DNA of 64,000 bases from Cetorhinus maximus (lineage: Eukaryota). How positions within the stretch are numbered: position 1 is the stretch's first letter; every line of letters begins with the position of its first letter. Position numbers and translations under genes: made by a program. The notes beneath the pieces are model-generated. The model did not search any database. It saw only the letters and a program-made list of their open reading frames with translations, and had not been told where the DNA came from. The stretch spans positions 105,214,001 to 105,278,000 of the forward strand of contig NC_135892.1 of NCBI RefSeq assembly GCF_964194155.1, given 5' to 3'. Positions 18,451-55,938 of this stretch are shown piece by piece.

Positions 18451-18594
18451 TCATTTCTTTACTGCTGTGAGTTTCAGTGTCCCCATCGCGATGACTACGG
18501 TCACTACAGAAGTTGCTAGAAGGATCCATGGCAATCTACCTTTGCTGAAAGTCCTTGAATTGTGATGCCATTTTTGAGTTTCCTTTCCAGAGTG
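18451..18594 (-). CDS. SYNJ2BP: SYNJ2BP-like, terminal exon (tail-anchor TM)
   Basis: ttttattcttggcag|HSGKETQKWHHNSRTFSKGRLPWILLATSVVTVVIAMGTLKLTAVKK-TGA. A hydrophobic ~20-aa segment flanked by basic residues sits at the extreme C-terminus, as in OMP25. AATAAA follows the stop directly. Confidence 0.75.
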   Translation of the reverse strand, partial: HSGKETQKWHHNSRTFSKGRLPWILLATSVVTVVIAMGTLKLTAVKK

Positions 18595-19469
18595 CTGCCA
18601 AGAATAAAACCAGAAAGTTAGGGGATCAGGGTACAAGACAGTGCTTTATTGTTATTACCTGCATAAACTAGAAGTAAACAGTAATCAAGAAATTAGAAGG
18701 GTGATTTGTTGCAAAAAATGATTTGTTATAGTTTCATAGCCTTTGGGATTTAATTGTGCAATCTGTGAGGCAGTAAATTGTACAACAGGTGGATGGATAA
18801 AGGCAGAAATTTGCAGGTTATCATATCAGTTCAGTTACCCTAACATTCAACTGTATCAGGGAATGGAGGACTGGCAGGTTGGTCAGACAAAAGTTGTCAC
18901 CATTCATTCAGTCTCATATCCTCATTGTTGCTATTTAGTCCTAGTTCTTGGTTCTGTTCAGTCACTACCTTTTTTCATGGATCTGTGAAGCTTTGTAAAC
19001 AATTAGCTGCTCAGGCATCAGGAAGAAACTTTTTTACTTGTCACTATTTACTTGTGACTGCTGACACCCTATCTTGGGGACCTGAAGAGGACTTTGGCCA
19101 CTAGTTTAATATAGAATCATAGAATGGTTACACAGCACAGGAGGCCATTCTGCCCATTGTGTCTATGCCAGCCCTCTGCAACAGCAACACTCAGCTAGTC
19201 CCATTCACCGCCTTTTCCCTGAAGTCCTACAATTCTCTTATGTTCAGATAATTATTTCCTTTTTGAAAGCAATGATTGCTTCACCTCCACCACATTCTCA
19301 GGCACAAAAGTATTTCTTCATGTTGCTTTTGGTTCTTTCGCCATTCACCCTCAGAATGATAGTGCAGTTCCACATACTGAGTCAATGAGGAGTTAACCCA
19401 TAGGGAACAAGATGGTTCCAGGTCTCTGCGATGTTAGCCAAACGCAGCAAGGAAAGTAATGGGCTTGAA

Positions 19470-21645
19470 ATAAAAACAGAAGCTGTTTCTGCATGTCTGA
19501 CAGAGTTAAATGTTTCAGGTCAAGGACCTTCAGAACTAAAGGGAGATGGAAATTTTGACCAAGTGAAGGGGGGTGGGGGCGGGTGCGACATGGTGGGGGA
19601 GGGGGGAGAACAAAAGGGAAGGTCTGTGATAGGGTGGAGGACGGGAGAGATTAACTGACAAAAGATTTCATGGTACAAAAGGCAAAGGCAATGGTAATGG
19701 ATGTAGTAGAGAAGCAAAAGATTTACCCAGAGTGAGTGTGAATGGCAGAATAACAAACAGCTGTGTCTAAAAGCAAAAACATGAAAATCAAGATGGGGGG
19801 GACAGAGTTCATGGTCTGAAACTGTTGAACTCAATGTTGAGTACAGATGGATGTAAAGTGCCTAATCCAAAGATGCAATGTTGTTCCTCAAGCTAACATT
19901 GAGCTACACTAGAACAGTGCAGCAGGCTGAGGATGGAGATGTCCGTGTAAGAGCAAGGTGGAAAATTAAAATAGAAATCCACCAGAAGCTCAAGGACATA
20001 CTTGCGGACTGTGTGGGGGTGTCCCGCAGAGCAGTTACCCAATCAGTGCTTGGTCTCCCCAACATAGAGGAGACTGCATTGTGAGCAGCAAATACAGTAT
20101 ACTAAATTGAAAGAAGCAAACAACCATAGCTGCTTCACCTGGAAGGAGTGTTGAGACTTTGGGTGGTGAGGAGAGAGAAGGTAAAAGGGCAGGTGTTACA
20201 TCTCCTGTGTTTGAATGGGAAGGTTGAGTTGTTGGGAGTGATTGGGGAATGGACCAGGGTGTAACGAAGGAAACAGTCCCTTCGGAACACTGACCGGGAA
20301 GGGGAAGGGAAGATGTGTTTGGTGGTGGCATTACGCCGAAGGTGGCAGGAATGGCAGAGGATGATCCATTGAATGCGGAAGCTGGTGGGGTGGAAGGTAA
20401 GGACAAGGGAAACCTTTTTGCTGTTTTGGATGGAGGGGACCTGGTGAGAACAAAAATGCGGACAATGTGTTGGACACTGTTGAGGACCCTGTCAACCAGG
20501 GTAGGAGTAGTTCTTGGTTGAGGAACAAGGAAGACATATCAGAATTGCTGTTGTGGAAACTTACATCGTCAGAACAGATGCGACAGAGACAGAGAAACTG
20601 AGAGAATGGAATGGAGTCCTTACAGGAAGCAGGGTGTGAGGAACTGTAGTTGAGATACCCGAGTCAGTGGCTTATTATGAATATTAGTTGATAATAGTTG
20701 GTAGTTTATTAGCCAATATTCAATATTCCCTGTCACTATTCCGAAAGGACCATTCCCTCTACAACATCTTGGTCCACTTCTCAATTGCCCAATTCCTCAT
20801 CTCTCTCCCACAGCACCTTCCCATGCAAACACAGGTGTAACACCTGCCCTTTGACCTCTCATGGTGCAAGGTCCCAAACACTCCTTCCAGGTGAAGCAGT
20901 GGTTTACGTGCACTTCTTTCAATTTAGTATACTGTATTCACTGCTTACAATGCAGTCTCCACTACACTGGGGAGACCAAATGCAGATCAGGGTGACTGCT
21001 TTGCAGAACACCTCCTCTCAGTTTGCAAGAATGACCCTGAGCTTCCAGTGGCTTGCATTTTAATTCTCCACCTGTCTCCCATGCAGGCATCTCTGTCCAA
21101 GGCCTGCTGCATTGTTCCAGTGAAGCTCAAAGCAAACTCAAGGAATACACCTCATGTCAATTAGGCACATTTTGGACACAACATTGAATTCAACAATTTT
21201 AGACTGTAATCTCTGTCTCCACCACCCACACATCCGTGCCCCCTCCCCCCAACACCCCTGCATCTTATTTTTCATGTTTTTGCTTTCGGACACAGCTGTT
21301 CATTATTCTGCCATTCACACCCACTCTGGGCAAATCTTATGTTTCTTTACTACAACCATTAACATTACCTTTGCCGTTTGTACCACTAAATTTTTGATAG
21401 TTGATTTCTCCCGCCCTCCACCTTATCACAGACCTCTTTTGTTCTTCCTTCCCCCTCCCCGTCCCACCCTTTCACTAGCTTAAAACCAATATATTTCTAT
21501 CTCCCTTCAGTTCTGAAGAAAAGTCTTTGACCTGAAACGTTAACTCTTTTTCTCCTTCCGCAGACGCTACCAGACCTGCTCAGTACTTCCAGCATTTTCT
21601 GTTTTTATATCAGGTTTCCAGCATCCACAGTATTTTGCTTTTGTT
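19470..21645. mobile_element. Two inverted Penelope-like element fragments (GIY-YIG region plus terminal repeat)
   Basis: The left copy (-) and right copy (+) both encode decayed C/YIGET..R...H GIY-YIG sequence and end in the cagatgctg..agacctgctgag..tccagca terminus. Confidence 0.75.
21509..21545 (+). ncRNA. Minimal type-I hammerhead ribozyme motif in a Penelope terminal repeat
   Basis: AGTT-CTGAAGA-A-AAGTC(TTT)GACCT-GAAA-C-GT-T-AACT. Stem I is AGTT/AACT, the CUGANGA and GAAA cores are intact, and stem III is a palindromic ACGU. Degenerate copies occur in other Penelope ends. Confidence 0.6.
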
Positions 21646-23292
21646 ATGTACTGGGTTTGACTGTGATGCCCTCTACAGTAGGTTGTTCTAGAGAGTCAGT
21701 GTCTAGGTTTAGACGTGAAAGGGGCGAGATTTACCTTGCACAGTAATACAAAGCTCTTTTTTATATTCCATCCAATTTTCTTTGTCATTAACCTCAATGG
21801 TGGAGTGTTAAACAGCCTGCTGATACACGACCACTGGTTTTGTGCTAATGTTTCCCCTTGCCCAACTCTTGGAGATTTAGTGAGGCAATCAGCACCAATA
21901 GAACCTTGTATAAGCAGAAATGAGTCTATCTGTTAAAGAACAGTTCTGAAGAACAGTTACATTCGACTCGACACATTAACTCTGTTCCTCTCTCCACAGA
22001 TGCTGCCAGACCTGCTGAGCTTTTCCAGCACTTTCTGTGATGATAATGTGTTGCTGCTTCTGGATTATCCTTTCTTCATGATATTCCATGGATTTCTCAC
22101 CTCATTTGAGAGTTTTAGACAAGTGCATGTTTGTAGAACAACTAGGGACAGTTTTCTCTGAAAACCTAATGTAGGAACGGGGGTAGACCATTCAATTCTC
22201 GAGCCAGTCCCAGCATTAAATTATATCGTGGCTGATCTGTACCTCAACCCCATAACCCTTGATACTTTTACCTAACAAGAATCTATCAGTCAGTCTTGAA
22301 AACTCGAGTTGTCCCAGCATTCACAGCCTTTTAGAAACTAGGAGCAGGAGTAGGCCATTCATTACGATCATGGCTGATCATCCAACTCAATAGCCTTCTC
22401 CCGCTTTCTCCCTTTTTGGGTGTGAGAATTCGAGATTTCTACTGCGTTTTGTATCTCCTCCTGGATTCACCCAGCAGATGAAATAGTTTCTATTTATCTA
22501 CCTTATCAAATCCTTTTAATGTCTTGAAGACATCAATCAGATTGCACCCCTCAATATACTATACTTAAAGGAATGCAAGCCAAGTTTATGCAAGCTGAGC
22601 TCATAATTTAATCTTCTAAATCCAGCTATCATTCTGGTCTGGATGCACATGTACCATTTTAAATATCAAAATGTCTCCAGTGTTATTGTTCAAGGTAAGC
22701 CAGAGGATATGCTGCTTTGTAAGGATGGAGGGGTTTATACCAAGCCAAACATTAAGTACTATTTTGGGTGGGAGGATCTGTGTCTCTTTAAAGCAATAAA
22801 ATCCACTTGTTAAGTAAATATGATGTAAAATCACTCAGTTTAATTGCAGTTTGGCCAGGATACTTTAAAAAATATGGTGGTCAGTTCTGGTGCCAGATCA
22901 GAAGTACCTATCATTATGTAACTACCTCTTTTTTCTCATGCTTTTTAAGTTTGTTTGCATCTGCAATAAAGTTTCATTTCTGCATGTTCTGTTTTTAATA
23001 TATGTTGTAGATAGATGTGAACCTCTGGAATTCCCACTACATCTCTCTGCCTCACCTTTCTCCTTTAAGACACTTCTTAAAACCTACCTCTTTGACCAAC
23101 CTGCCCTAATATCTCCTTTTGTGACTCGGTGTCATATTTTGTTTTATAATGTCCCTGTGAAGCGCCTTGGGATGTTTTTGCATATTAAAGCACTATATAA
23201 ATGGAAATTTCTGTTGCTGAGCCCAAGAGAAAGCTGTACAATAAAATCTCTATCACATTGTTTTAACACACAGAGGAAGATATTCAAATTAC

Positions 23293-23358
23293 CTGCCAGA
23301 GTTGTGGTGGCTTCCATTCAGCTGTTGAACACACCTCATCGCCAAACTCATATCTGAC
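23293..23358 (-). CDS. SYNJ2BP-like, putative exon 4 (linker, possibly a cassette exon)
   Basis: gtttttcag|VRYEFGDEVCSTAEWKPPQLWQ|gtaatt. 66 nt, phase 0/0, open in frame with good splice sites. No homology recognised. Confidence 0.5.
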
Positions 23359-23916
23359 CTGAAAAACGACACATGAACAGTTTATTAAATGTATGCTTTG
23401 TGTGACATGTAAAAGTGGCTGAGAAATTTGAGCATGCCTGCATGGTGAGAGTTGAGGCATCTCTGATATTGGGCCTATCATGTCTCAACCATGGAGCGGC
23501 TGAGAGCAACAGGCTAGTGCAACAGAAGATCAGGCCACTGCTGGCACCGTAGTGACCTTCAGCCAATGAGAAAAGCCGGGTGGGGGGGTGGTCAGGAAGC
23601 AGAGGGAGCAGTGACCCAGTGGGGCTGGCAGGGAAATTGATTTTGCAGGGAGGGTTAAAATTTTGGGGGAGGGAGGGGTGTTCCCCCAATGCGCACACAG
23701 GGCACTCCTTAAAGGTCGTACCCCTTCCTCCCCGCCTTTTAAACATTTGCCCACTCCTGCCTGCCTGCCTATGCCAACTGTATTACAGCGTGAGCAATGT
23801 ATTGTCCAGGTCAACTGGCTTGTTAATAAGCTCAATTGACCCTTAATTATTTATTTAAATATGGCAGGCTGATTTTAGCAGCTGCCTACCTACTGTGTTA
23901 TGGGGAACAGCTTGGT

Positions 23917-23967
23917 GGGGGGTGGGGGACATCGGGGGGTGGGGGACATCGGGGGGTGGGGGACATC
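23917..23967 (+). repeat. 17-bp G-rich tandem repeat x3
   Basis: Three exact copies of GGGGGGTGGGGGACATC. Confidence 0.9.
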
Positions 23968-24763
23968 CCTTGTATTTTACGTGCTGTCCTCCTGGTGAAA
24001 ACATGCCTGGTGGGGGATGGTATAATCCAGCTCCTTGTTTCTAATTTCTGTGCAAAGAATGCATCAGCTGTTCACTCTCCACTGAGGATATGTGGTGTGA
24101 ACACCTAGGACCAAAAAAAAAATTATAGAAAAGAAAAGGGAGTTGTTCATCAACAAGAGGAAAAAAAATTCCTTATCTCTTTGTAATGTCCAATACTTTT
24201 GCTTCTAGAATATTCTGGCAACATTATATTCTATCCTGTTGCTTTGTGGGTAATGTGCATGCTTTGCTTAAATACAAAACCATGGAGTATAGGTTGAAAC
24301 CAGTGGCTCAGTTAAGGAAGAAACTAAGAATTCCAAAATCTGGTTCTAAGCAGTTTCTTTATGAAAGTATCTCTATGAAAGACATGCTGCACATTACTGT
24401 ATTACTGCATTATTACTGTATTACTGAAAACACAAAAATAAAGAGTTCCATTATACATTTTTAAAATCTATGCAGAATTTGAAATTAGTTTACATGTTGG
24501 CAAAAGTGCTACACGTTTTGCTTACATGATAATTGAATGACCATATATTTATTCAATTGATCTATTAGCATACAGGAACAGAGCGTTCAGGGCTAACCTA
24601 CCTTGATCTGACATGGAATTGGTTTGTGTTACTCTGCTTTCCCTGGTTGGGATGTGATGGAGCTTATTTGCTTTCTATTGAGGTGTGCCATGGGTCCATA
24701 CTGATGTTACCAACCATCAGTTACTTTATTCACAAAAATCTATCACAAAGAATTGTTCCTTAC

Positions 24764-24862
24764 CTGCCTCTCGATTCGTAATACTAACTCATCATTGGTC
24801 ATGTTCCTAAATACCTCTGCTGCTTCCTCATGCAGTATATTAACAAGTGAAATTCCATCAGC
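24764..24862 (-). CDS. SYNJ2BP: SYNJ2BP-like, exon 3 (PDZ C-terminal half)
   Basis: tttag|ADGISLVNILHEEAAEVFRNMTNDELVLRIERQ|gtaagg. 99 nt, phase 0/0. Matches VNGQDLKNLLHQDAVDLFRNAG..VSLRVQHR. Confidence 0.88.
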
Positions 24863-25583
24863 CTAAAGACAGGAGATCAAAACAGATACAATGAAGTAGC
24901 AGTGTAGTTGGAAGTGATCTATTTATAATGAAAGTATTGGATGGGGACTAGATTGTGCAATGGGTTAGCATGCTGTCCTTTTACATTTAGATTGTGGATT
25001 CATAAGTAGCCCAGGCAGAAGACAAAAGTTTCTTCTCTCTGTCTATATGCTTTGCCTCTTCCCCCACTGAACATGTTTAAATTAAGCTTTGTTGCACAGT
25101 CTCTGACCAATAACTCAATCTTTAAAACTGTGAGAATCCTTACCTTCTAGTTTCTCCTACAATTTTCAACATTTAAACTTTGCTTAGCATCAAAACGATA
25201 TGTTATTTAATTTGTCTTTTAATCTCTTCGATCTTGGTTGTGTCATACCTTGATGGTTGAGCTGAAAATGGCTATCAAATGCCTTCCAAGCACCTTGCCA
25301 ATAATGAAAGTGGGAAATGATTGCCTTGTAGGCATAGCTTCAGGTAACGTTTGGGGGAAGCCTGGAGGCATCATCCTTGTGGATAAGTTTATAGATGACG
25401 ATGGTTTTTAAGAAAGCCCCATAATTTTGCCACTGACAAAGTTAATTTTCACCAGCACAAGTGGCATAGCTAAGCACTTGTTAGATATTCACTCCCTCCA
25501 CCACTGGGGCACCATGGCTACAGTGTGTTTTATCTACAAGATACAGTTCAGCAACTTGCCAAGGCTCCTATGACTGCACCTTC

Positions 25584-25641
25584 TGTTATGGACAGAATTT
25601 GTGTGGTCCCTTCCAGGCCATGATCAGGATGTTTGTGTGTA

Positions 25642-25675
<34 letters not shown>

Positions 25676-26571
25676 TTCCTTACTTTCGGATATGTTTTCT
25701 TATTTTTAAAATAAATTCCAGCAGCAGGCTTTTTGGTGATTTAAAAAAATAAAGAAGATTATTTATTATTACACACTTGCCCCAGATATTTGAAATGCAA
25801 CATCTCAATCGCTCATCTCGCTCACACCATCACACGCAAGATTAGATACAGGTGAAGTTAAAGCTCTTGTTATAAATATTCAATTTTTATAATTAAGTAT
25901 CTATGTCGATGCAGCCTCATATCTTCTTAGTTGATACTTAGTTGGAGTGAAGGTCCTTTAGAAACAAAGGATTCTCATGAAGCTGAGAAGCCTCGTGTAG
26001 AAAAATAGCAAGCAGATTGGTTCTCGGGCAGACTTGGAAACTGGAACAAGTTCAGTACTTTGGGCTGCATCAGAAGACTTTCAGCTGTGATGGTTCAGAT
26101 GTTCAGACATTTCTCCCTGCCAGATTTGCTTTGTTCATGGTGTATTTTACTGCAGTCTCTGAAAGTTAGTTTCATTCACATGACTGCAGGGTTAACATTT
26201 CTAGGGTCCAGACTGCCAAGATACAATAGCAGTTAACAATGGCCATCCACTCTTATCTGTCCCAACTCAAATAGTCTCTTTTGTTCAATATGACACTTGG
26301 AAATCAACAGTCTAGAGATCCCATAATCCCCAAATGCTGGTTCATCCTCAAACAATGAAATATGTAAACTTCATAGGTGACTGCAAAGCACCTTATTCAG
26401 ATCCATGTTTAACTAAATATTGGCCACAGAATTGAATACTGTCCACAGTTTAAATGCCCATTGTCACATGTTAAGTTGCAGCCACCTTAACAGAGTTTGT
26501 GGTCACTTTGGTAAAGTATGATCTTACAGTTCGTAATATCCAATATCCTCATGCTTGTACTGAGCATGACA
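25584..26571. mobile_element. Solo LTR-like element (988 bp)
   Basis: TGTTATG...CATGACA termini and a 4-bp TSD CTTC. It splits the CR1 motif gcaccttc|caaaccc. Confidence 0.75.
25644..25673. repeat. (GT)n microsatellite
   Basis: About 15 GT units inside the solo LTR. Confidence 0.9.
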
Positions 26572-26816
26572 CTTCCAAACCCACCACCTCTATTACCTAT
26601 CATAACCAGGCGATTAGGCACATGGGAACATCACGACCTGCAAGTTCCCCTCAAAATAACACACCATCCTGACTTGGAAATATGTCACTACTCCTTCACT
26701 GCTACTGGGTCAAAATCCTGGAACTTCCTCTTTAACAACATTGTGTGTGTACCTATATTACATGGACTGCAGCTGTTCATGACCACCTGCTCAAGGGTAA
26801 TTAGGAATAGGACCAG

Positions 26817-27728
26817 TGTCATGAAAGGATAATAATTCCCATATTATTATTGTGATTTATTGTAAAAGTAGGTTGATAGTGGGGTTTGGATAGTTTGTGT
26901 GTGTGTCTGTGCGCGTGTGTGCACACGCGTGGGACTTAATTGAATTGGAGACAGCTGGTCTGGAGGCTTTGATTCATTAAAAGAATCTAGGTTTGAAACG
27001 CTAAATATGTAAACATGGCTGATGTCTTAGAATGTAGGGTGAGGAGAATTTGCATTTTTAGATAAATCAGGGCAGTTTAAATTTCAAAGAGATGATAGGA
27101 TGTTTACACCTAGCCAGAGAAGCTAAGCCAAGCAGTGTGTTTATTTTTCCCAAAGGTTACTGACAATATTAGCACCATGAAAAGATTTATATTATGAGAA
27201 AAGTAAAGTTCCAAAGACATATGGGAACAGTGAAATTTACATTAAAAGGAAGAAACATGTATAATGGAGAATGAGGTTGTGTCAGGAAGGCATTATAAGA
27301 TCCAACAAAAGTGTGAGAAGCCTCCAGTATTTGTGCATTAAGCCTGCTGTCTACAGAAACCGAAGCTGGGAAAAGCCACTTTGAATTCTACTGTCCATGG
27401 TATTGTGTTGACTTGCCTGGATCTGTTTAAATCTATTTTTTTTCCACTGTTGCCTTAATGGGCTAGTAACTGGAAGCCAAATTAATTAGGGGTTTTAGGA
27501 GATATTATAGTGGTAATTTGTAGACCTATGTATGTGCTTGCAATCTTTTCTTTTGTTAATAAATGTTTAATGTAGTATTTTTTAAAAATCTCTGAAGTCC
27601 TGGTGGACTCTGAATTCAGGGCACGGATCTTGAAATAAATACAAATTGCAAAACCATTGTGATAGTGTGATCAAGCTTCTCTTGTGGATTTGATCCACCT
27701 GGCACACATCATCTGCCACGTCATTACA
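26817..27728 (+). mobile_element. Solo LTR (912 bp)
   Basis: TGTCATG...ATTACA termini, 5-bp TSD ACCAG (26812-26816 and 27729-27733), AATAAA near 27558. Confidence 0.78.
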
Positions 27729-28006
27729 ACCAGCCATGCCATGACGCTCAAATCACATGAACAAACTAAAACTTGTTTGCTGACCATTTAACTGCCTCTC
27801 TTGATTAGTTCTCTAAAGAAGCTCACTGACCTTTGAGTTCTGACAAAAAATACAAAATATTAACCTGTCATTTCAGATGCTGGGAGACCTACTATGTTTT
27901 ACCTGATTTTCTATTTTGATTTTGCAGTTTGTTTTTCTTCATTGTCCAAAATCCATAATTCCAAAAAATAATTCATGCTTTGATCGGAACAATTGCAAGA
28001 ACATAC

Positions 28007-28143
28007 CTCCAAGATCTTGTCACCCTCTTTAAGTCTTCCATCAAGAGCTGCTGATTCATTTTCTCTTATTTTAGCAACGTAGATTCCACAATTTCCAGGA
28101 TAACAGGGTTTATCCGCTCCTCCCAAGATGTTAAACCCAAATC
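28007..28143 (-). CDS. SYNJ2BP: SYNJ2BP-like, exon 2 (PDZ core)
   Basis: ttacag|..[45 protein letters not shown]|gtatgt. 137 nt, phase 1/0. Closely matches SYNJ2BP GLGFNIVGG...[26 protein letters not shown]. Confidence 0.9.
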
Positions 28144-28824
28144 CTGTAAGTGAGTACCAAGCATGAATGTAAAACAAAATGATATGGAATTGTAATATTA
28201 GGTACAATAGAACTCAATAATAATCTTGCCCTCACTGGAGATAGCAATTATCATCTATTTATACTATATTGAATCATTAAGGCAAGTGAATTGAAACATC
28301 AAAAAATTCATGGGGTAGATATTGGGTATTGTGGTGTTTGTTACTGGGCTAATAATCCAGAGGCTTGAACTAATAATCCAAGAAGTGTTAGTGCAAATCC
28401 CACTGTGACAGTTTGAGAATTTGAATTCAGATGAAATCCGGTCAGTAAAAGTGACCATGAAATTGTCTGCTTGTTGTAAAAACTTAGCTTTTTCACCAAT
28501 GTTCTTTTGGAAAGGAAATCTGCAGTCCTTAATCAAGTGACTCCAGTCCCACGCCAATGCGGTCAACTCTTAACAACCTTCTGAAAAGGCCTAATAAACA
28601 AGCCCCTAAGTCAGGTCAACGAGCGATGGGCAATAACTTCCAGCAGTTCCCACTTCCTAAAGATGATTAAAAAACATTACTGGGAAAATTTGAAATTGCT
28701 GTCTGATCTTGGGCAATTGGTGAAAACACAGGGCATTAGGAGGTGAAATGGAACTTCAGAAACAAGAGCAGGCTATTCAGCCTGTTCCACCAATCAATCA
28801 GATCATAACTGATCAGTACAGTGC

Positions 28825-29340
28825 AAATAGAAACATAGAAACTAGGAGGAGTAGGCCATTCGGCCCTTTGAGCCTGCTCCTCCATTCATTATGATCATGG
28901 CTGATCATCCAACTCAATAGTCTGCTCCTGTTTTCTCCCCATACCCTCTGATCCCTTTCGCCCCAAGAGCTATATCTAACTCCTTGAAAACATACAATGT
29001 TTTGGTCTCAACTACTTTCTGTGGTAACGAATTCTACAGGCTCACCACTGTCTGGGTGAAGAAATTTCTCCTCATCTCAGTCCTAAATGGTCTACCCCAT
29101 ATCCTCAGACTGTGACCCCTGGTTCTGGACACCTCCACCATCTGGAACATCCTTCCTACATCTACCCTGTCTAGTCTTGTTGGAATTTTATAGGTTTCTA
29201 TGAGATCCCCCCTCATTCTTCTGAGCTCCAGCGAACATAATCTTAATCGACTCAATCTCTCCTCAAATGTCAGTCCCGCCATCCCAGGAATCAGTTGGGT
29301 AAACCTTTGCTGCACTCGCTCTACAGCAAGTACATCCTAG
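28825..29340 (-). mobile_element. CR1 LINE 3' fragment
   Basis: QQRFTQLIPGMAGL..EERL...RRMRGDLIETYKI motif plus tail. Confidence 0.85.
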
Positions 29341-29959
29341 TGTAGTGATACTTATGGACAGTTGGACTGGAAACTATATTTTTGATCAGCTGCATGCAGA
29401 TCATTTCTCCCATCTCTGTACTTCAATTTTAAACACCGCTGAGATTTGAAGTGCTGCTGTTCAGTTCCTCTTCACCCATTTAACACTGAAGAAAGTTTCT
29501 AGCTGGCTATTTTAACAGCCGCTTTTACATTCAGCAAGCATTCAGTTCACTGGTGCTGCCTAAAATTTGCCTAAATTAAAATGCTGACTTCCATTCAACA
29601 ACTAGTTCACGGCAAATGCTTTAACATGCATGAGTTTTGAAAATAGTTTTCTCATGTAACAAACCTGCATCAACCCATTTTGTCCTGCACCTTCTGTTCA
29701 TTATTAGAAAGAGCTTGCATTTATTTAGCACCTTAACACCACCTCAGGATGTTCCAAAGTGTCTTCCAACAAAGGAATTACTTTAGAAGTGTAGTACTGT
29801 TAGATTCACAGCCAAGAGGTCATGATTTAAAATTCCACATGGCAGACTGAATTCAATAAATCTGGTCATTTGTGACGTAACGCCAGAAAATAACCATGAA
29901 AAGAGAGGAGAGGACAAGAGAGTAAGGTAGCATTAAGGGAAATGATAGAGTGTGGCAGG

Positions 29960-32690
29960 AAGGGACAGAGCATACAAACTTAAGAGTGTGCTTGCAGATA
30001 AGGCTAGAGGTTGTGAAAATAATAAAAAATAATTAAAGGCTCTCTATCCGAATGCATGCAACGCTCACAATAAGGATGAATTGATAGCACAAATAGAAGC
30101 AAACAGATATGATCTAATTGCCATTACAGACACATGACTGCAGGGTGACCAAGGCTGGAAACTGAATATTCAAGGGTATTCGACATTTAGGAAGTGTAGG
30201 CAAAACGGAAAAGGGGGTGGGGTAGCCCTGTTAATAAAGGATGAGATCAGTATGTTAGTGAAAGAGGTTATTAGTGAGAAGATCAAGATGCAGAATCAGT
30301 TTGGGTAGAGCTATGAAACAGCAAGGGACAGCAAACGCTGGTAGGATCTGTTTATAGACCACCAAACAGTAGTGGTGATGTAGGGCATGGTATAAATCAG
30401 GAAATTAGAGATGCATGTAACTAGGGTAATACAGCAATCATGCAGACTTCAACCTATGTATAGATGGGTAAACCTAATTAGCACTAATGCTGTGGATGAT
30501 GAATTCCTGGAATGTGCATGAAATGGTTTTCTAGAACAGTATATTGAGGAACCAACTAGAGAATGGGCTGTTTTAGATCTAGTAATGTGCAATGAAAGGG
30601 CTAATTAATAATCTTGTTGTAAAGGAACCTTTAGGAAATAGTGACCATAATATGATGGAATTTTATATTAAGTCTGAAAGTGAAACTCATGTCTTTAATC
30701 TAAACAAAGGAAACTATGAAGGTATGAGGGGTAAGTTTGCTGTAGCAGATTGGGAAACAACATTAAAAGGTAAGATAGTAGACAAGCAATGGCTAACATT
30801 TAAAGAATTAATACATGGTTTACAACAAATGTACATTCCTTTGAGGCACAAAAACCCAGCAGGAAAAGTGATCCAACCATGAGAAGTTAAGGATTTTATT
30901 AGATCGAATGAAAAGGCTTATATAGTTGCCAGAAAAATAGTAGTAAGCCTGAGGATTGGGAAAATTTCAGAATTCAGCAAAGGAGAACCAAGAAACCTAT
31001 GGAGAAAGAAAAAATAGAATACAAAAGTAAAATAGCACGAAACATAAAAATGGAATGTAAAAGCTTCTATAGATATGTAAAAAGGAAAAGTTTGGAAAGA
31101 CAAATGTAGGCCCATTACAGGCAGAGACAGGAGAATTTATAATGAGGAATAGGAAATGGCAGAGAAACTAAGTAATTACTTTGTGTCTGTCTGCATGGAG
31201 GAGAATACAAAAAAACCTCTTTAAAATACTAGAGAATCAAAGGATTAGTGAGATTGAGGACCTGAAAGAAATTAGTATTAGTGGAAAAGCATACCAGAGA
31301 AATTAATGGGACTGAATGTTAATAAATCCTCTCCCTGGACCTGATGATCTACATCCCAAGGTATTGAGAAAGGTGGCTGCACTGGTGATCATCTTCCAAA
31401 ATTCTATTGATACTGGAATGGTTCCTATAGACTGGAAGGTAGCAAACATGACCCCAGTATTTCAGAAAGGAGGGAAAGAGGAAACAGGGAACTACAGTCC
31501 TGTTAGCCTGACATCAGTCAGTAGTCGGAAAAATGCTAGAGCCTATTATAAAGGATATGATAACTGGACACTTAGAGAATAATGGTAGCGTTGGACAGAG
31601 TCATCATGGATTTATGAAAGGGAAATCATGTTTGACAAACATGTTGAGTTTTTTAAGGAGGTAACAAGTAGATAAGGGAGAACCAGTTAACGTGGTGTAT
31701 TTGGATTTTCAGAAGGCTTTCGATAAGATTCCAAACAAAAGGTTAGTTAGCAAAATTAGAGTACATGGGATTGGGGGTAATATACTGACATGGATTGAGG
31801 ATGGTTAACTGACAGAAAACAAACAGTAGGAATAAATGGGTCATTCTCAGGCTGTGACTAGTGGAGTACTGCAAGGATCAGTGCTTGGGCCCCAGCTATT
31901 TGCGATCTATATCAATGATTTGGAGACCAAATGTAATATTTCCAAGTTTACTGATGATACAAAACTAGGTGGGAGTTTGAGTCTTGAGGAGGATGCTAAG
32001 AGGCTTCAAGGGGATTTAGACAGACTAAGTGACTGGGCAAGGACGTGGCAGATGGAATTTAATGTGGAAAAATGTGAAGTTATCCACTTTGGTAGGAAAA
32101 ACAGAAATGCAGAATATTTCTTAAATGGTGAGAGATTGAAAAGGTCCAAAGGGACCTGGTTGGTGAGACTGCACCTAGAGTATTGTGTACAGCTTTGGTC
32201 GCCTTACCTAAGCAAGAATATACTTGCCATAGAGGGAGTGCAACAAAGGTGCACCTCACTGATTCTTGGGATGGCAGGATTGTCCTATGAGGAGACTTGG
32301 CCTATATTCTCTAGAATCTAGAAGACTGAGGGATGATCTCATCGAGACATCCAAAATTCTTACAGGTCTCGACAAGGTTGATGTAGACAGTATGTAGAAC
32401 CAGGGGACACAGTCTCAGAACAAGGCTATTTAGGACCAAGGTGATGAATTTCTTCACTCAGAGGGTGATGAATCTTTGGAGTTCTCTAACCCAGAGGTCT
32501 GTGGAGGCTCAGTCATTGAACATGTTCAAATCAGAGATGGATAGATTTCTACTTATTAAAGATATCAAGGGAAATCAGGAGAGTGCAGGAAAATGACATT
32601 GAGACAGAAGATCAGCTATGATTTAGTTGAATGGTGGAGCAGGCTCAAGGGGCCAAACACCCTACACCCTGCTCCTATTTCCTATATAAG
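29960..32690 (+). mobile_element. CR1 LINE ORF2 (APE + RT), decayed
   Basis: EPLGNSDHNM (APE), PGPDDLHPKVL, GVLQGSVLGPQLFAIYINDL..SKFTDDTKL (RT), followed by the CR1 3' tail. Confidence 0.9.
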
Positions 32691-32719
32691 CTGCTATGTT
32701 GTAAAAAAAAAATACTGGT

Positions 32720-33090
32720 GTGGCTGTGGCTAAGGATGGTGCATCCTGCAAGGCATCAAATCAGTCGCTGACTAAAGTCATCAAGAAGCTGCCCAAGAAA
32801 TGGAGAAAATCTCACAAGCTGAACTATTCCACTTGTGTATACAGGGTGCTGACCCAGGTTCACCCTTCCACCAGGATCTTGTCCAAGGCAATGAGTGTCA
32901 CAAACTCCTTCGTTGTTGATATTTTCAAGCGCATTGTCTCCAAGACCTCCACCTCATCTGTTACAAGTGCCACACCATCTAGGCCAGGGAGATCCAGGGC
33001 TCCATCCAACTCATGCTACCAGGGGAACTGACCAAACAAGACATTTCTGAAGGTACGAAAGCAGTCACCAAACACACCAACTCCGTTTAG
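32720..33090 (+). pseudogene. H2B: Histone H2B pseudogene, antisense within SYNJ2BP-like intron 1
   Basis: YSTCVYRVLTQVHPSTRILSKAMSVTNSFVVDIFKRI, then a 1-nt frameshift near 32950 and an in-frame TAG at 32980, then [35 protein letters not shown]. No ATG (GTG instead) and no 3' stem-loop seen. Confidence 0.9.
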
Positions 33091-33689
33091 GTCCACCATT
33101 CTAATGATTAACATCCTTTAGGGAAGGGAGCATGTCATTCGTACATGATGTGACTTATATGCGTCTCCACTCTCACACTACATTGTTGTCTCTTAATCCC
33201 CTTTAATTAGGGTTGAGCAATAAATACCGCCTTTCCAGTACTGCTGATATGCCAAGAACAATGTGTGCCTAAAGGCTGACTCCCACTAAAGTATGAGGTA
33301 TGAGGCTGCTGCAGGTCAGAACCTTTCCTCCAAAACAATTATCTCCCTTTGAAGGGCTGAACGGTGTACTCCTGCTCCTAAGTCCTTTCTTCCTTTTGCC
33401 TCAAATTCATCTTACTTTTGTCCAAATTTCACAAATTGCTATTTGAAATCGATTTACAATACAGCATGCAGTAAAATTATACCTAATTCCTGAATTTCAA
33501 GTCTTCTGGGTGAAACAAGCAGTAAAATTAAACCTAATCACTTCATTTCAAGTCATCTGGTGGGGGGAAGAAACATAATTATCTGAAATAAATTTGTGCT
33601 TGATGAACTGCTTCTGTTTGGAGTGTACAGAATGTGAAAGTTTGGAACATGTTTCAAGGATATCATAAATCTGAGTTCCAATATCAACA

Positions 33690-33910
33690 CCTCGTTGTCC
33701 TTTTGTCTATCTTTTGGCAATCTCCACCTATCACTGGCCCTCTATCCAGCTCTACCTGTCCCACGCCCCCTTAAACCAGCTTATATTTCACCTCTTTTCT
33801 ATTTTTCTTTAGTTCTGGTGAAGAGTCATACGAACTCGAAACGTTAACTGTATTCCTCTCCGTAGATGCTGTCAGACCTGCTGAGTTTTTCCAGGTATTT
33901 TTGTTTTTGT
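33690..33910 (+). mobile_element. Penelope terminal fragment
   Basis: Same terminus as 40137-40584 and 7862-8000. Hammerhead-like motif at 33811-33849. Confidence 0.65.
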
Positions 33911-35296
33911 TCCAATAAGATTGATGGACCACTCAGTTAATGCAGATGTCATCTGAACCATTCAATATTTTACTGCTCTTAGAACCTCCGTTCTATTATT
34001 AGAAAAATGAGCTTGCGTTTATTAGCCACATCCTCATTACTAACAAGTAGTAAAATATATTGTGATATAATTTATCCCATTCTCTTCGTCTGAAGACATT
34101 AGAGATGAAATTCAACTTCAGTAGGGATGCAGAGAGGGACAGTTATAGGAAAGGAAATACGGTGGGGTGTATAATGGGCAGCCAATCCACTACCACTTTT
34201 TTGTGGCCTGAAGCTGGGTTTCACCCCTATCAAATCAGTTGTTGTATGATTCTAAGGGCACAAATCACTTTCAGGTACCTCAACAAACCTACCATTGCTC
34301 CTTTGAAAATCTGAACAGTGAGTGTTAGCAAGCTATTTTGCTGTAGACGTATCATAGCCAAATTCAATTTTGTTTTCACCCAACTTCTAAAGGCTTTTTG
34401 GCAGTGATCACTGGATAGTTAATAGGAGTGGGATCCCCAACTGGACTTCCTCTCCTAAACCTGGGGTGATGAATGCAACTATCATTTAAGCCTGGTATCA
34501 ATCAACTTTGCACAGCCATGGAATTAAATGGGGAACTTTCAGATGTGTAAGGCTCATTTACACTATGCCTTTAACAACTGAGCCACAGGCTGTAGCTACC
34601 CATCTCTTGCTGTCTGTTTGGTACCCTTGCTTCCAGGAAACCACAAAATTGATAATTAATTGTGAACAAAAATAAATAACATTTTTAATATATTACAGAT
34701 CACAGCCTGGAGATACAGGAGTATAAATTTGTTTTAGGCAATTGGGGGATAACAATCAGCAACCTATTTTGCAATCTACCTTTTCTTTTCATTTCAATTT
34801 GTAATCTAGCATCTTAAAATTAAAGCTTAAATTAAATCCAAGAGAAGACATTTCACACAAAGGATTGTGACAATGTGGAGTGTATAGGTCTAGACAACCA
34901 TAGTTGCAAAATCAATTGAGATGTTTAAAAGGGACACAGGTGCTTCCTGGGGAATGTAGACGAATGAAGGGCAGTGAAATGAGATTAACAAATGATGAAA
35001 CAGACTTGTAGGGCTGAAAAGCTTACTTCTGTTTCAAGGCAGTTCGACCTCATTGTTCAGATGATGTTGACAAAATGTTTTTTTTAGAGTTACAAAGTAT
35101 TATACCAGAGGCAGGACATTCTGCCCATCAAGCTTGTACCTGGTGTTATTCTAATCTATTCATTAACTTGTATTTTTATAATGCCTGTAATGAAGCAAAA
35201 CATGCCAAGGCACTTCACGGAAGAGTTAGCAAACAAAATGAGACACCCAGCCATATAGGGAGATATTGGGGGCAGATAACCATAAGCTTGGTTGAA

Positions 35297-35439
35297 ACTC
35301 TTTCGAGTTATCAACAGTCACAGATTGCAACTCGTTCAAGTACAATCATAGTTCTTGGTTTCCGGGAGTGGGACATGAACCCACAACCCTCTTGATTCAA
35401 AGGCGAGGGTGCTATGAACTGAGCCACAGCTGACACCTC
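35297..35439 (-). mobile_element. Short tRNA-headed insertion with a 14-bp TSD inside an L2 fragment
   Basis: TAAGCTTGGTTGAA is duplicated at 35283-35296 and 35440-35453. The head is the same A/B-box type as the SINE at 13826. Confidence 0.65.
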
Positions 35440-36802
35440 TAAGCTTGGTTGAAGAGGCACTGTCTTAAGAGAGGAAAGGGAACTAGAGAGGTGGAGAACT
35501 TTAGGGAGGAAATTCCACAACTTCAGGCCATGGCAACTGAAGGCATAGCTATCAAGGGTGGAACTCAAGTGGCTAGAATTGGAGGAGCACAGTTATTTCA
35601 AACAGTTGTAGCACTGAAGGAGATTGGTAGGGGTGAAGCCAGGGGAGGGATTTGAAAATAAGGAAAGAAATTTAAAAGATGAGTTGCTTAACCAGGCACC
35701 AATTGGGGTCAGTGACCACATTGGTGATGGGTGAACTTGATGAGTTAGCACATGAACAGAGTTTTAGATGACCTCAAGATCATGGAGCGTAAACTTCCCA
35801 TATTGTTTAAATATTCCTCCTATTCCAGCAACTAATTGCTTTTCAAAAGGCTTTATAGACACTGCTTCAACAATTGTGTGGCAACAACTTTCAAATTCAA
35901 ACCACACAACATAAAGTTTTTTAACTCCCACCTCTTTTATATGATGTAACCATTAACATACTTTGCACCTTTGTTCCATGGTATAAAATTCCTTTGATTA
36001 TGGAAGAGTGTATTATCCAACTGTGTTGCTATATAAAAATCCCTTATACAAGTAATTAAAACTTAGCTCAGATCTGTAGGGTTTCAGAACTAAAATGGCC
36101 AGCAGAACTCAAAAGTGGTTGCACATCAAACCTCAAAAGTTTCAGCAGTACAAAATTAATGAAGATTGGCTTGTTACTGCAGAAATTCTCAGTATATCAT
36201 ATGCTGTGGTTATAATTTAGGATCAAAAGAGATTTGGGATATTTTGGGAACTGTTCTCCTTATTGCAGTAAAGCAGATAAATGTGCTTATTTTTCACAGA
36301 ATTTTATATAGATTACTCCAGAGACTTGATCATGCAATCCAGTCTAGCATTCAGTGCAGTATTGAAGGAATGCTGCAATGTTGGAGATGACGTTTCAGAT
36401 GCGAAATCAAACCAAGGCGTCCGTCCTGGTCAATATTTATCTATCAACCAACATCAATCATTAGTGGTCATTATTTCGTTGCAATTTGCAGGAACTTTCT
36501 TCCTACATTACAACAATGGCTACACTTTAAAAGTACATTATTAACAGTAAAACGCTTTAGGAAATGTTATTAAAATGCAAGCTCTAATCTTTAGACTAAT
36601 TTTCCTTCCCTCACGGTCTTTGTAAGGACAGAATACTGGTGTGAGAATTCAAATATTGTAAAAATGTAATTTTTTCAAATGTTGGATGCACCTTAGCAGT
36701 CCAGAGCTGCTGTTCCAGGATACAGACCGGCTAGGTCACGCGTAACAATTTATATCCATTCCGAACTGAGCACGCAGGATGCCAAAGAGTTTCTCTGCTG
36801 AC

Positions 36803-36881
36803 CTGCATTTCCTCTTTTCAACATTATGATGTGAGATTCCGTTCTCAGGCGGAGCAAGTCTCTCCTGCCCCTGGTCACCAT
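36803..36881 (-). CDS. SYNJ2BP: SYNJ2BP/OMP25-like PDZ protein, coding exon 1
   Basis: AACATGG Kozak context with an in-frame TAA upstream. Encodes MVTRGRRDLLRLRTESHIIMLKRGNA+G with a phase-1 donor AG|GTCAG. Aligns with SYNJ2BP EEINLTRGPS-G and joins exon 2 to give the GFGF loop. Confidence 0.8.
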
Positions 36882-51261: not shown

Positions 51262-51415
51262 CCAAACTAGCTAATCCAAACATTTGGTAGAAGTCCCACT
51301 CTTTGGCATAACGAATTATATCTGTAGGATCAACAGTTTGCTGTGAATCCTGCAGCTGTGACCACCTAAGATATGCTTCACACAACAAGCAGAATATGCA
51401 TAGCTTCCAATGAAT
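51262..51415 (-). CDS. ARV1: ARV1 coding exon 3
   Basis: cag|[51 protein letters not shown]+G|gtaaga, 154 nt. Confidence 0.96.
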
Positions 51416-55751: not shown

Positions 55752-55938
55752 ATGGCAGCTGCCAGTCAGCGAGTCGCGGCGGCGGTTGTTGCTCAATTTT
55801 TATTGTTTTCTCTGTGTCGTTCGGCATGGGCCGAATACTTCTCTTCCCTCTTGTCCTTTAGTAGCAATAGCCAGATGCAGAAGCAAGGCTGCGTCACTCA
55901 GTCTGAATTTGGGAACTCGGAAGACTTCGTGGAGTGCG
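55752..55938 (+). CDS. TTC13: TTC13 coding exon 1 (signal-peptide-like N-terminus)
   Basis: MAAASQRVAAAVVAQFLLFSLCRSAWAEYFSSLL...GCVTQSEFGNSEDFVEC+G|gtgaga, phase 1. Resembles human ...EHYSPLSLL...GCSPQSGDWGDQYSAEC. Head-to-head with ARV1, as in human. Confidence 0.88.

Follow-up and report, generated by a model that had tools for sequence, protein, structure and literature searches.

Gene structure of the window locus

We analysed a stretch of 64,000 nucleotides from the basking shark (Cetorhinus maximus; NCBI RefSeq assembly GCF_964194155.1, contig NC_135892.1, positions 105,214,001 to 105,278,000), here called the window and corresponding to C14:105.214-105.278 Mb, where C14 is our label for its contig. 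On the minus strand of the window, between ARV1 and DESI2, lies a gene for a small PDZ protein which, by every sequence test we applied, belongs to the SYNJ2BP family. Its PDZ core was first located at about position 28144 in a six-frame scan. The five exons proposed by the first-pass annotation of this DNA (Table 1) were confirmed and join into a coding sequence of 525 nt without an internal stop, encoding 174 residues. All four introns are GT-AG (8659, 3144, 1405 and 4698 nt, phases 1/0/0/0), and an AATAAA motif overlaps the stop codon. The product is identical at every residue to the NCBI model XP_078413542.1, 'synaptojanin-2-binding protein-like [Cetorhinus maximus]'. The annotation had called the gene uncharacterised, which is right for the function but not for the locus, as NCBI already models it as SYNJ2BP-like, DLG-like or an ARV1 isoform.

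Pfam finds one PDZ domain in the product (PF00595, residues 20-102, E 4e-14). The sole hydrophobic stretch is C-terminal (residues 151-167, grand average of hydropathy (GRAVY) 2.32), with three basic residues in the preceding ten positions and a charge of +3 in the following seven. The proposed SYNJ2BP architecture, a single PDZ domain and a basic-flanked C-terminal transmembrane segment with a divergent linker and tail, was borne out by Pfam, hydropathy and charge.

The 66-nt exon 4 was the least certain from sequence alone. It is present in the gene models of nine species and skipped in NCBI-model isoforms of four. Some NCBI isoforms of horn shark, bamboo shark and catshark lack the anchor and fit the use of an exon-4 donor lying 4 nt further upstream; the same shift applied to the window exon gives a frameshifted form of 151 residues without the anchor, ending like the horn shark model. 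The anchor-less tails of the skate X2 and sevengill X2 models were also considered as conserved exons and rejected, as they are repeat-derived. The first coding exon of the white shark model matches window positions 42035-41952 on the minus strand (27/28 residues) and the sevengill N-terminus matches 37145-37080 on the same strand; both are possible alternative first exons.

In run X1, a putative RNA contig set with the same organism code, one contig of 194 nt agrees with 18466-18594 at every position and breaks off precisely at the exon-5 acceptor; the 65 letters 5' of this match were unplaced among the matches listed. We regard this as a weak hint of splicing and not as a junction. No RNA entry for the last exon was found among the recorded sequence sets.

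Table 1. Features of the window (coordinates are window positions)
Feature	Position	Strand	Remarks
PDZ gene, coding exon 1	36881-36803	-	79 nt; ATG at 36881; PDZ strand A and carboxylate-loop Arg; phase-1 donor
PDZ gene, exon 2	28143-28007	-	137 nt; GFGF loop, strands B-D
PDZ gene, exon 3	24862-24764	-	99 nt; strand with Ala-Asp-Gly replacing Ile/Val-Asn-Gly; helix B with His83, Glu84, Ala87, Phe90
PDZ gene, exon 4	23358-23293	-	66 nt; linker; cassette exon, not in canonical SYNJ2BP
PDZ gene, exon 5	18594-18451	-	144 nt; basic linker, transmembrane helix, basic tail, stop
DESI2, coding exon 1	16758-16720	-	1.7 kb after the PDZ-gene stop codon, same strand
ARV1, coding exons	~55465-46740 (last coding exon ~46842)	-	upstream of the PDZ gene, same strand; approximate ends
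Likely TTC13, exon 1	55752-55938	+	head to head with ARV1; approximate start

The canonical SYNJ2BP gene of the basking shark

A search of the genome with exon 2 gave four matches among 21 candidates, namely the exon itself, two DLG-type exons and, on another contig (C19), a SYNJ2BP-type exon at 56%. The gene on C19 consists of four exons (61, 137 and 96 nt plus a last exon) and matches an NCBI model named plainly SYNJ2BP (P0049). It has three intron positions and phases in common with the window gene (61/137/96 against 79/137/99 nt, phases 1/0/0), and the window gene has one exon more. Since three introns stand at the same places and phases, the window gene is not a retrocopy. A search with the canonical protein (22 matches among 88 candidates) showed only these two genes to be SYNJ2BP-like by identity, together with a broken processed copy of canonical SYNJ2BP at C12:11.312 Mb, which has exons 2-4 joined, two stops and 68% identity. 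In all seven species in which both types are listed, they lie on contigs of different length.

A separate canonical SYNJ2BP had been expected beside COX16. The gene was found, so that the window gene is a paralogue and not a moved orthologue, but the neighbour was not where it was expected. Family searches of the contigs placed the following genes along C19: RGS at 86.44 Mb (RGS-DHEX), SIPA1L at 87.26 (SPAR_C), PCNX at 88.08 (Pecanex), SYNJ2BP at 89.14-89.17, a DESI2-like gene at 89.21-89.43, SLC8A at 90.00 and COX16 at 90.03-90.07. We take this set to be that of human 14q24.2. COX16 was rejected as the immediate neighbour, because its spliced gene lies 0.87 Mb from SYNJ2BP and the DESI2-like gene adjoins instead. 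Relative to the human order, COX16 and SLC8A (C19:89.99-90.07 Mb) are inverted as well as distant. A teleost model (P0188) joins SYNJ2BP to COX16, and so their adjacency may be the bony-vertebrate state. An intronless COX16 copy, with its frame open across the whole Pfam model, lies at C10:137.748 Mb, its spliced parent being the C19 gene. In human, MAP3K9 is at 14:70.7 Mb and SIPA1L1 at 14:71.3 Mb (PMC8040251).

Probable duplication of SYNJ2BP together with DESI2

Four teleost models (P0078, P0109, P0175 and P0183) carry a PDZ domain plus PF05903, that is, a canonical SYNJ2BP joined to a DESI2-like gene. Searching the basking shark genome for DESI genes gave three matches among eight candidates, on C19 (89.40 Mb), on C14 (adjoining the window) and on C2944. 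At both SYNJ2BP loci the next gene after the PDZ gene is a DESI2-type gene on the same strand, with a gap of 43 kb on C19. On C14 this downstream neighbour had been overlooked by the first-pass annotation. What is new here is this repeated gene order, the three intron positions that the two SYNJ2BP genes have in common and the likely block duplication of SYNJ2BP and DESI2.

The C14 and C19 DESI genes have the same exon sizes and their proteins are identical at 146/194 positions. The C19 gene (C19:89.213-89.426 Mb) is full, encodes 197 residues and represents a second DESI2 paralogue common to sharks and teleosts. It is presumably absent from human, and we take the C14-type gene to be human DESI2. 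Teleost DESI2-like proteins (about 181 positions compared) are identical to the C19 protein at 144-151 positions and to the C14 protein at 128-132. The four teleost rows agree in 152 alignment columns, of which 22 match C19 only, five match C14 only and three unite the shark genes against the teleosts; this count rests on three groups (C14, C19 and teleost DESI2-like), without bony-vertebrate DESI2 proper or invertebrate DESI. Because the teleost DESI2-like proteins side with C19 (22 sites versus three), duplication of SYNJ2BP and DESI2 as one block likely preceded the divergence of sharks and bony fish.

In the wider chromosome context, RGS (94.46 Mb) and ADSS (103.2 Mb) on C14 have paralogues on C19 at 86.44 and 42.1 Mb. 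In the little skate, chromosome 8 carries Desi2-2 (26.7 Mb) and Adss-1 (28.6 Mb), Pcnx1 is on chromosome 9, and for linkage group A1 its Table 3 gives 1-alpha as LER9 and 2-alpha as 'LER5 or LER8' (PMC10115646). If C14 is taken as LER8 and C19 as LER9, which we infer from Desi2-2, Adss-1 and Pcnx1, the two SYNJ2BP copies would lie on opposite sides of the first round of vertebrate genome duplication (1R). Human genes of 1q42-44 (SIPA1L2, ACTN2, CHRM3, AKT3) and of 14q fall in two quarters of paralogon 3 (PMC8040251). The two shark loci thus lie on chromosomes of one paralogon, as judged by RGS and ADSS, the skate linkage table and human paralogon 3, and a neighbour was co-duplicated with SYNJ2BP, as judged by the gene order.

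The skate gene numbers also suggested that the window gene might lie close to SYNJ2. This was rejected, as the synaptojanin gene on C14 is 64 Mb away. Beside the C14 and C19 copies there is a third adenylosuccinate synthase gene at C32:3.07-3.09 Mb (and on C2160), near the C32 Pecanex gene, which is possibly another ohnologue kept in sharks.

Distribution of the paralogue

Orthologues of the window gene were found in 11 chondrichthyan species: basking, white, whale, zebra, bamboo, horn and sevengill sharks, two catsharks, little skate and elephant shark. The genome searched was that of the basking shark; the other vertebrates were covered through protein collections. When exon 2 was used to query proteins, 13 of 37 candidates matched, of which 12 were chondrichthyan and one was the canonical protein of an eel; the white shark orthologue was added through cluster look-ups. 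A profile built from the paralogue only gave 211 hits among 7157 candidates. The best 120 of these included 12 chondrichthyan clusters at 205-318 bits, and the next, at 115 bits or less, were invertebrate and bony-fish canonical SYNJ2BP. We also searched 1.84 billion representatives with a profile. Multi-PDZ proteins made up most of the best 150 of 6661 hits, and the only single-PDZ rows among them were five known chondrichthyan ones. Since multi-PDZ proteins crowded the best rows, this search is not a test for distant orthologues. Together, the searches suggest, but cannot prove, that the paralogue was lost in bony vertebrates, including human.

The elephant shark paralogue is called simply SYNJ2BP by NCBI (P0012, P0129), and one of the models reads the exon-5 homologue in a shifted frame. 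A canonical chimaera SYNJ2BP protein was not among the matches listed.

Trees and conservation

Trees were built from 94 PDZ columns with 47 rows, and with 24 of those 47, a set that omits fused, frameshifted and near-duplicate rows. The paralogue forms a clade at 100/100 with the chimaera at its base, so it predates the split of chimaeras and elasmobranchs and is not a recent lineage-specific duplicate. It falls inside the vertebrate SYNJ2BP clade at 95/99, 87/99 and 68/99 in three trees, which supports a duplication after the divergence of invertebrates. Approximately unbiased (AU) tests on the 24 rows leave the sister of the paralogue undecided: a clade of all canonical genes stands (p 0.448 under LG+G4 and 0.157 under a mixture model), and so does one that joins the paralogue to the shark canonical genes (p values below). 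The PDZ tree neither shows nor rejects an ohnologue origin, and the dating before the split of sharks and bony fish comes through the DESI neighbour only.

The paralogue PDZ domain is 72-89% identical across sharks, skate and chimaera, with an open frame. Compared with the basking shark paralogue, identity is 75/88 in skate, 77/88 in horn shark, 78/88 in bamboo shark and 63/88 in chimaera; for the canonical protein the values are 73/87, 79/87 and 81/87 in skate, horn shark and bamboo shark. The helix and tail of the paralogue are 69-79% identical and the exon-5 linker 39-56%. Judged by protein identity, after a burst of change on its stem the paralogue is constrained about as tightly as the canonical gene.

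The peptide-binding groove and the membrane anchor

The structural model consists of a full PDZ fold (AlphaFold blocks with a predicted local distance difference test score (pLDDT) of 87-98), a disordered linker and a terminal helix at residues 152-172. The six best Foldseek hits are human SYNJ2BP structures, several with a bound peptide, the best at about 1 A root mean square deviation. SYNJ2BP also provides the best single-domain PDB matches and the names of the three best Atlas clusters. Groove residues Arg23, Gly27, Gly29, Phe30, Asn31, Ile32, His83 and Phe90 are kept in the paralogue. Four other positions are its own: Phe28, Ala73, Asp/Gly74 and Ala87 occur in 9/9 paralogues and in none of the 31 other family members. 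Residue 84 is acidic in the paralogue, glutamine in the shark canonical protein and acidic in 5/17 invertebrate rows. Human SYNJ2BP prefers E-T-x-V ends with a basic residue at -4 or -5, and the -4 arginine contacts a helix 2 glutamine (PMC9482650). The residues suggest that class I binding is kept in the paralogue, with a reshaped terminal pocket and a basic -4 residue favoured.

The C-terminal transmembrane segment and basic tail are kept in all nine full-length orthologues. The tail charge is +3 in eight of these and +4 in one, with GRAVY 2.3-2.7, and the shark canonical tail has +3/+4 and 2.4-2.6. Published mean tail charges are +1.1 for mitochondria, +2.5 for shared tails, +0.2 for the endoplasmic reticulum (ER) and +6.0 for peroxisomes, and hydropathy sorts mammalian tails poorly (PMC5450235). 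By charge and hydropathy the tail matches the canonical shark protein and falls in the mitochondrial or shared mitochondrial-peroxisomal range, outside the ER range, with the proviso that our charges were counted differently from that study. We consider a location of the paralogue in the outer mitochondrial membrane reasonably likely. In human, SYNJ2BP uses its PDZ domain to bring TMIGD1 to mitochondria (PMC7164261).

Interpretation and alternative explanations

The reading we favour is that the window gene is an intact SYNJ2BP paralogue, duplicated with DESI2 in 1R, kept in chondrichthyans and lost in bony vertebrates, which encodes a tail-anchored mitochondrial PDZ scaffold. As a whole we find this rather likely; that the gene is a 1R ohnologue kept in cartilaginous fish, taken alone, is quite probable. 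The earlier proposal of a genome-duplication copy retained in these fish is likely correct, with the duplicated SYNJ2BP-DESI2 pair as its better support.

In mechanistic terms, a SYNJ2BP-DESI2 block would have been copied in the first vertebrate genome duplication, and the paralogue would have been kept in sharks, skates and chimaeras and lost in bony vertebrates. The C-terminal helix of the protein would insert post-translationally into the outer mitochondrial membrane, and perhaps into peroxisomes, so that the PDZ domain would face the cytosol. Class I C-termini (Ser/Thr-x-Val/Leu) would bind in its groove (Arg23, the GFGF loop, His83 and Phe90), and the proteins that carry them would be kept at the organelle in the way that human SYNJ2BP keeps TMIGD1. 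The changes Leu to Phe28 and Val to Ala87 in the terminal pocket, together with the acidic residue 84, may shift the ligand set toward a basic -4 position. Skipping of exon 4 might tune the linker, and the shifted exon-4 donor could yield a soluble form.

Several observations weigh against this reading. The terminal helix is modelled at low confidence (pLDDT 53-63), and the basic tail residues are not clustered beside the helix as they are in canonical SYNJ2BP; the different counting of tail charges counts here as well. A fast-evolving C14 DESI2 could inflate the DESI site count. The first-pass annotation had pictured PCNX2 and SIPA1L2 paralogues near the window gene, which is not so: Pecanex, SPAR_C and SLC8A paralogues lie on C5 (68.6, 69.3 and 145.1 Mb), C32 or C33, and none on C14. 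Our names for the RGS, ADSS, PCNX, SIPA1L and SLC8A copies are presumed from position and human maps. The trees have no lamprey, hagfish, named amphioxus or human row, the paralogue stem is very long (1.3-2.3), and one free tree puts the paralogue beside an eel. No exon-exon joint was found among the matches listed from four putative-RNA contig sets, which were searched at 82% likeness and swamped by intronic repeats.

A first alternative is that the gene is an old duplicate with a changed job, its product sitting in another membrane (ER, peroxisome or plasma membrane) or having a groove poor at class I ends. The long stem and the four fixed changes would fit this, as would the new exon and a tail unlike the canonical one, and human OMP25 (SYNJ2BP) reaches peroxisomes as well as mitochondria when expressed (PMC5450235). 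Yet the eight groove residues listed above are retained, the model superposes on SYNJ2BP-peptide complexes, and the tail matches the shark canonical protein in charge and hydropathy. We therefore consider a changed job fairly unlikely.

The ohnologue might also survive, diverged or unannotated, in some bony vertebrates such as bichir, gar, coelacanth, lungfish or caecilians. The room for this comes from the scope of the searches, which were word-seeded searches of protein collections, with the search of representatives crowded by multi-PDZ proteins. Among the best 120 of 211 profile hits, however, there was no bony-vertebrate member of the paralogue clade, nor any bony-vertebrate protein in the gap from 205 to 115 bits below the 12 chondrichthyan clusters. 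Such a survivor seems to us unlikely.

A segmental duplication in the cartilaginous-fish stem could have copied SYNJ2BP, with or without DESI2, to another chromosome, in which case there was no loss in bony fish. Paralogue-type motifs occur in 25 of the 188 stored proteins shorter than 340 residues, and all 25 are chondrichthyan, in line with this explanation. The AU test also leaves a clade of the paralogue and the shark canonical genes standing (p 0.094 under LG+G4, 0.282 under the mixture model). On the other hand, the linked DESI genes separated before sharks and teleosts diverged, by 22 sites versus three, both chromosomes carry RGS and ADSS paralogues, and the skate table assigns them to opposite 1R copies. 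Of 51 conserved PDZ columns, two show the paralogue with the invertebrate residue where all canonical vertebrate genes have a different one in common, and none shows a private residue common to the paralogue and the shark canonical protein. A segmental duplication is therefore very unlikely.

Finally, the idea that the gene is a single orthologue that has moved, a retrocopy or a pseudogene in decay is practically refuted, even if such copies do arise (as the broken one on C12 illustrates), by the canonical gene on C19, the three ancestral introns, the open frame and the PDZ conservation across sharks, skate and chimaera.

Comparison with related proteins and retained duplicates

In common with SYNJ2BP (OMP25, ARIP2) of human and of shark C19, the 1R ohnologue candidate has a single class I-type PDZ domain, a basic-tailed C-terminal anchor, three intron positions and phases and a DESI2-type gene downstream. 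It differs from the shark canonical protein in that the PDZ domains are only 40/87 identical. Canonical GLGF, Val and Ile/Val-Asn-Gly stand against GFGF, Ala87, Ala-Asp/Gly-Gly and acidic 84 in the paralogue, which has in addition the 66-nt cassette exon, a basic stretch before the helix, a tail of the KLTAVKK type instead of KYRRRL, and another chromosome. PDZ1/2 of DLG1-4 are alike in fold, and the DLG-type exons of the basking shark genome are 53% identical over exon 2. DLG/MAGUK proteins have three PDZ domains, an SH3 and a guanylate kinase domain, whereas the paralogue has 174 residues, one PDZ domain and a membrane tail. Because it has no SH3 or guanylate kinase domain, a single PDZ domain, an anchor and the SYNJ2BP introns, we regard the NCBI 'disks large-like' names as misnomers.

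To our knowledge, SYNJ2BP has been treated as a single-copy vertebrate gene. A literature search by titles and abstract starts found no description of a second shark SYNJ2BP gene, and there were no hits in the 12 of 24 supplementary files of the whale-shark paper that were covered. For little skate, 19 ohnologues have been reported that chondrichthyans kept and bony fish lost; wnt6b and cspg5 are named there as differentially retained (PMC10115646). The window gene follows this pattern, being a duplicate that sits on a paralogous chromosome, persists in cartilaginous fish and did not turn up in bony fish. SYNJ2BP gave no hits in the part of that supplement that does not hold the list of 19, so it may or may not be among them. 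The surprise is modest, because ohnologues kept only in sharks have already been described as a class.

If our reading is right, the ancestor of jawed vertebrates probably carried two PDZ anchors on its mitochondria, and the paralogue, with its reshaped groove, offers a natural variant against which ligand choice can be compared. As a block of two genes that survives at both loci after the duplication, the SYNJ2BP-DESI2 pair would be rare and would help in mapping linkage group A. It also suggests reciprocal loss in the human line, with SYNJ2BP kept at what we take to be 14q24 and DESI2 presumably at 1q44. The annotation can be corrected where the paralogue is hidden under DLG-like and ARV1-isoform names.

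The C-terminus of DESI2

The DESI proteins end in HTKL (C14) and RHTRV (C19 and 4/4 teleost rows). Thr-Lys/Arg-Leu/Val is a class I-like PDZ-binding end, and the C19/teleost-type tail has a basic residue at -4. The motif could account for the long-standing linkage or could be fortuitous. SYNJ2BP and DESI2 might have been linked as partners since before the genome duplications, with SYNJ2BP-family anchors recruiting the DESI2 deubiquitinase to mitochondria; we regard this idea, drawn from the tails and the gene order, as quite doubtful. DESI2, PPPDE1 and HTKL gave no hits in six supplementary files of PMC9482650. If the partnership were true, sharks would keep both pairs, the window copy with a re-tuned groove, humans would have lost one gene of each pair, and a so far unreported interaction of SYNJ2BP with DESI2 would be expected in humans.

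Neighbouring genes and read-through models

ARV1 lies upstream of the PDZ gene on the same strand, which bears out the adjacency first proposed. The tetratricopeptide repeat gene opposite ARV1 was assigned to TTC13 from its motifs and is presumably that gene; it has further exons past the window and a weak tetratricopeptide match in Pfam.

The donor of ARV1 exon 3 (51262-51415) is phase-compatible with exon 2 of the PDZ gene (28143). NCBI models of whale shark (four isoforms) and zebra shark (P0009, P0010, P0126-P0128) have ARV1 exons 1-3 fused in frame to the PDZ gene. These models likely represent read-through, by which the PDZ gene is hidden under the ARV1 name in the two species. They resemble read-through of the SYNJ2BP-COX16 type, as teleost models join SYNJ2BP to COX16 or to the DESI2-like gene. 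The difference is that the shark PDZ gene is the downstream partner, and that the fusion protein is predicted from models only.

The remaining DESI2 exons lie at C14:105.196-105.179 Mb. The 142-nt exon 4 of DESI2 (C14:105,193,5xx) has a GC donor; the corresponding donor of the C19 paralogue is GT.

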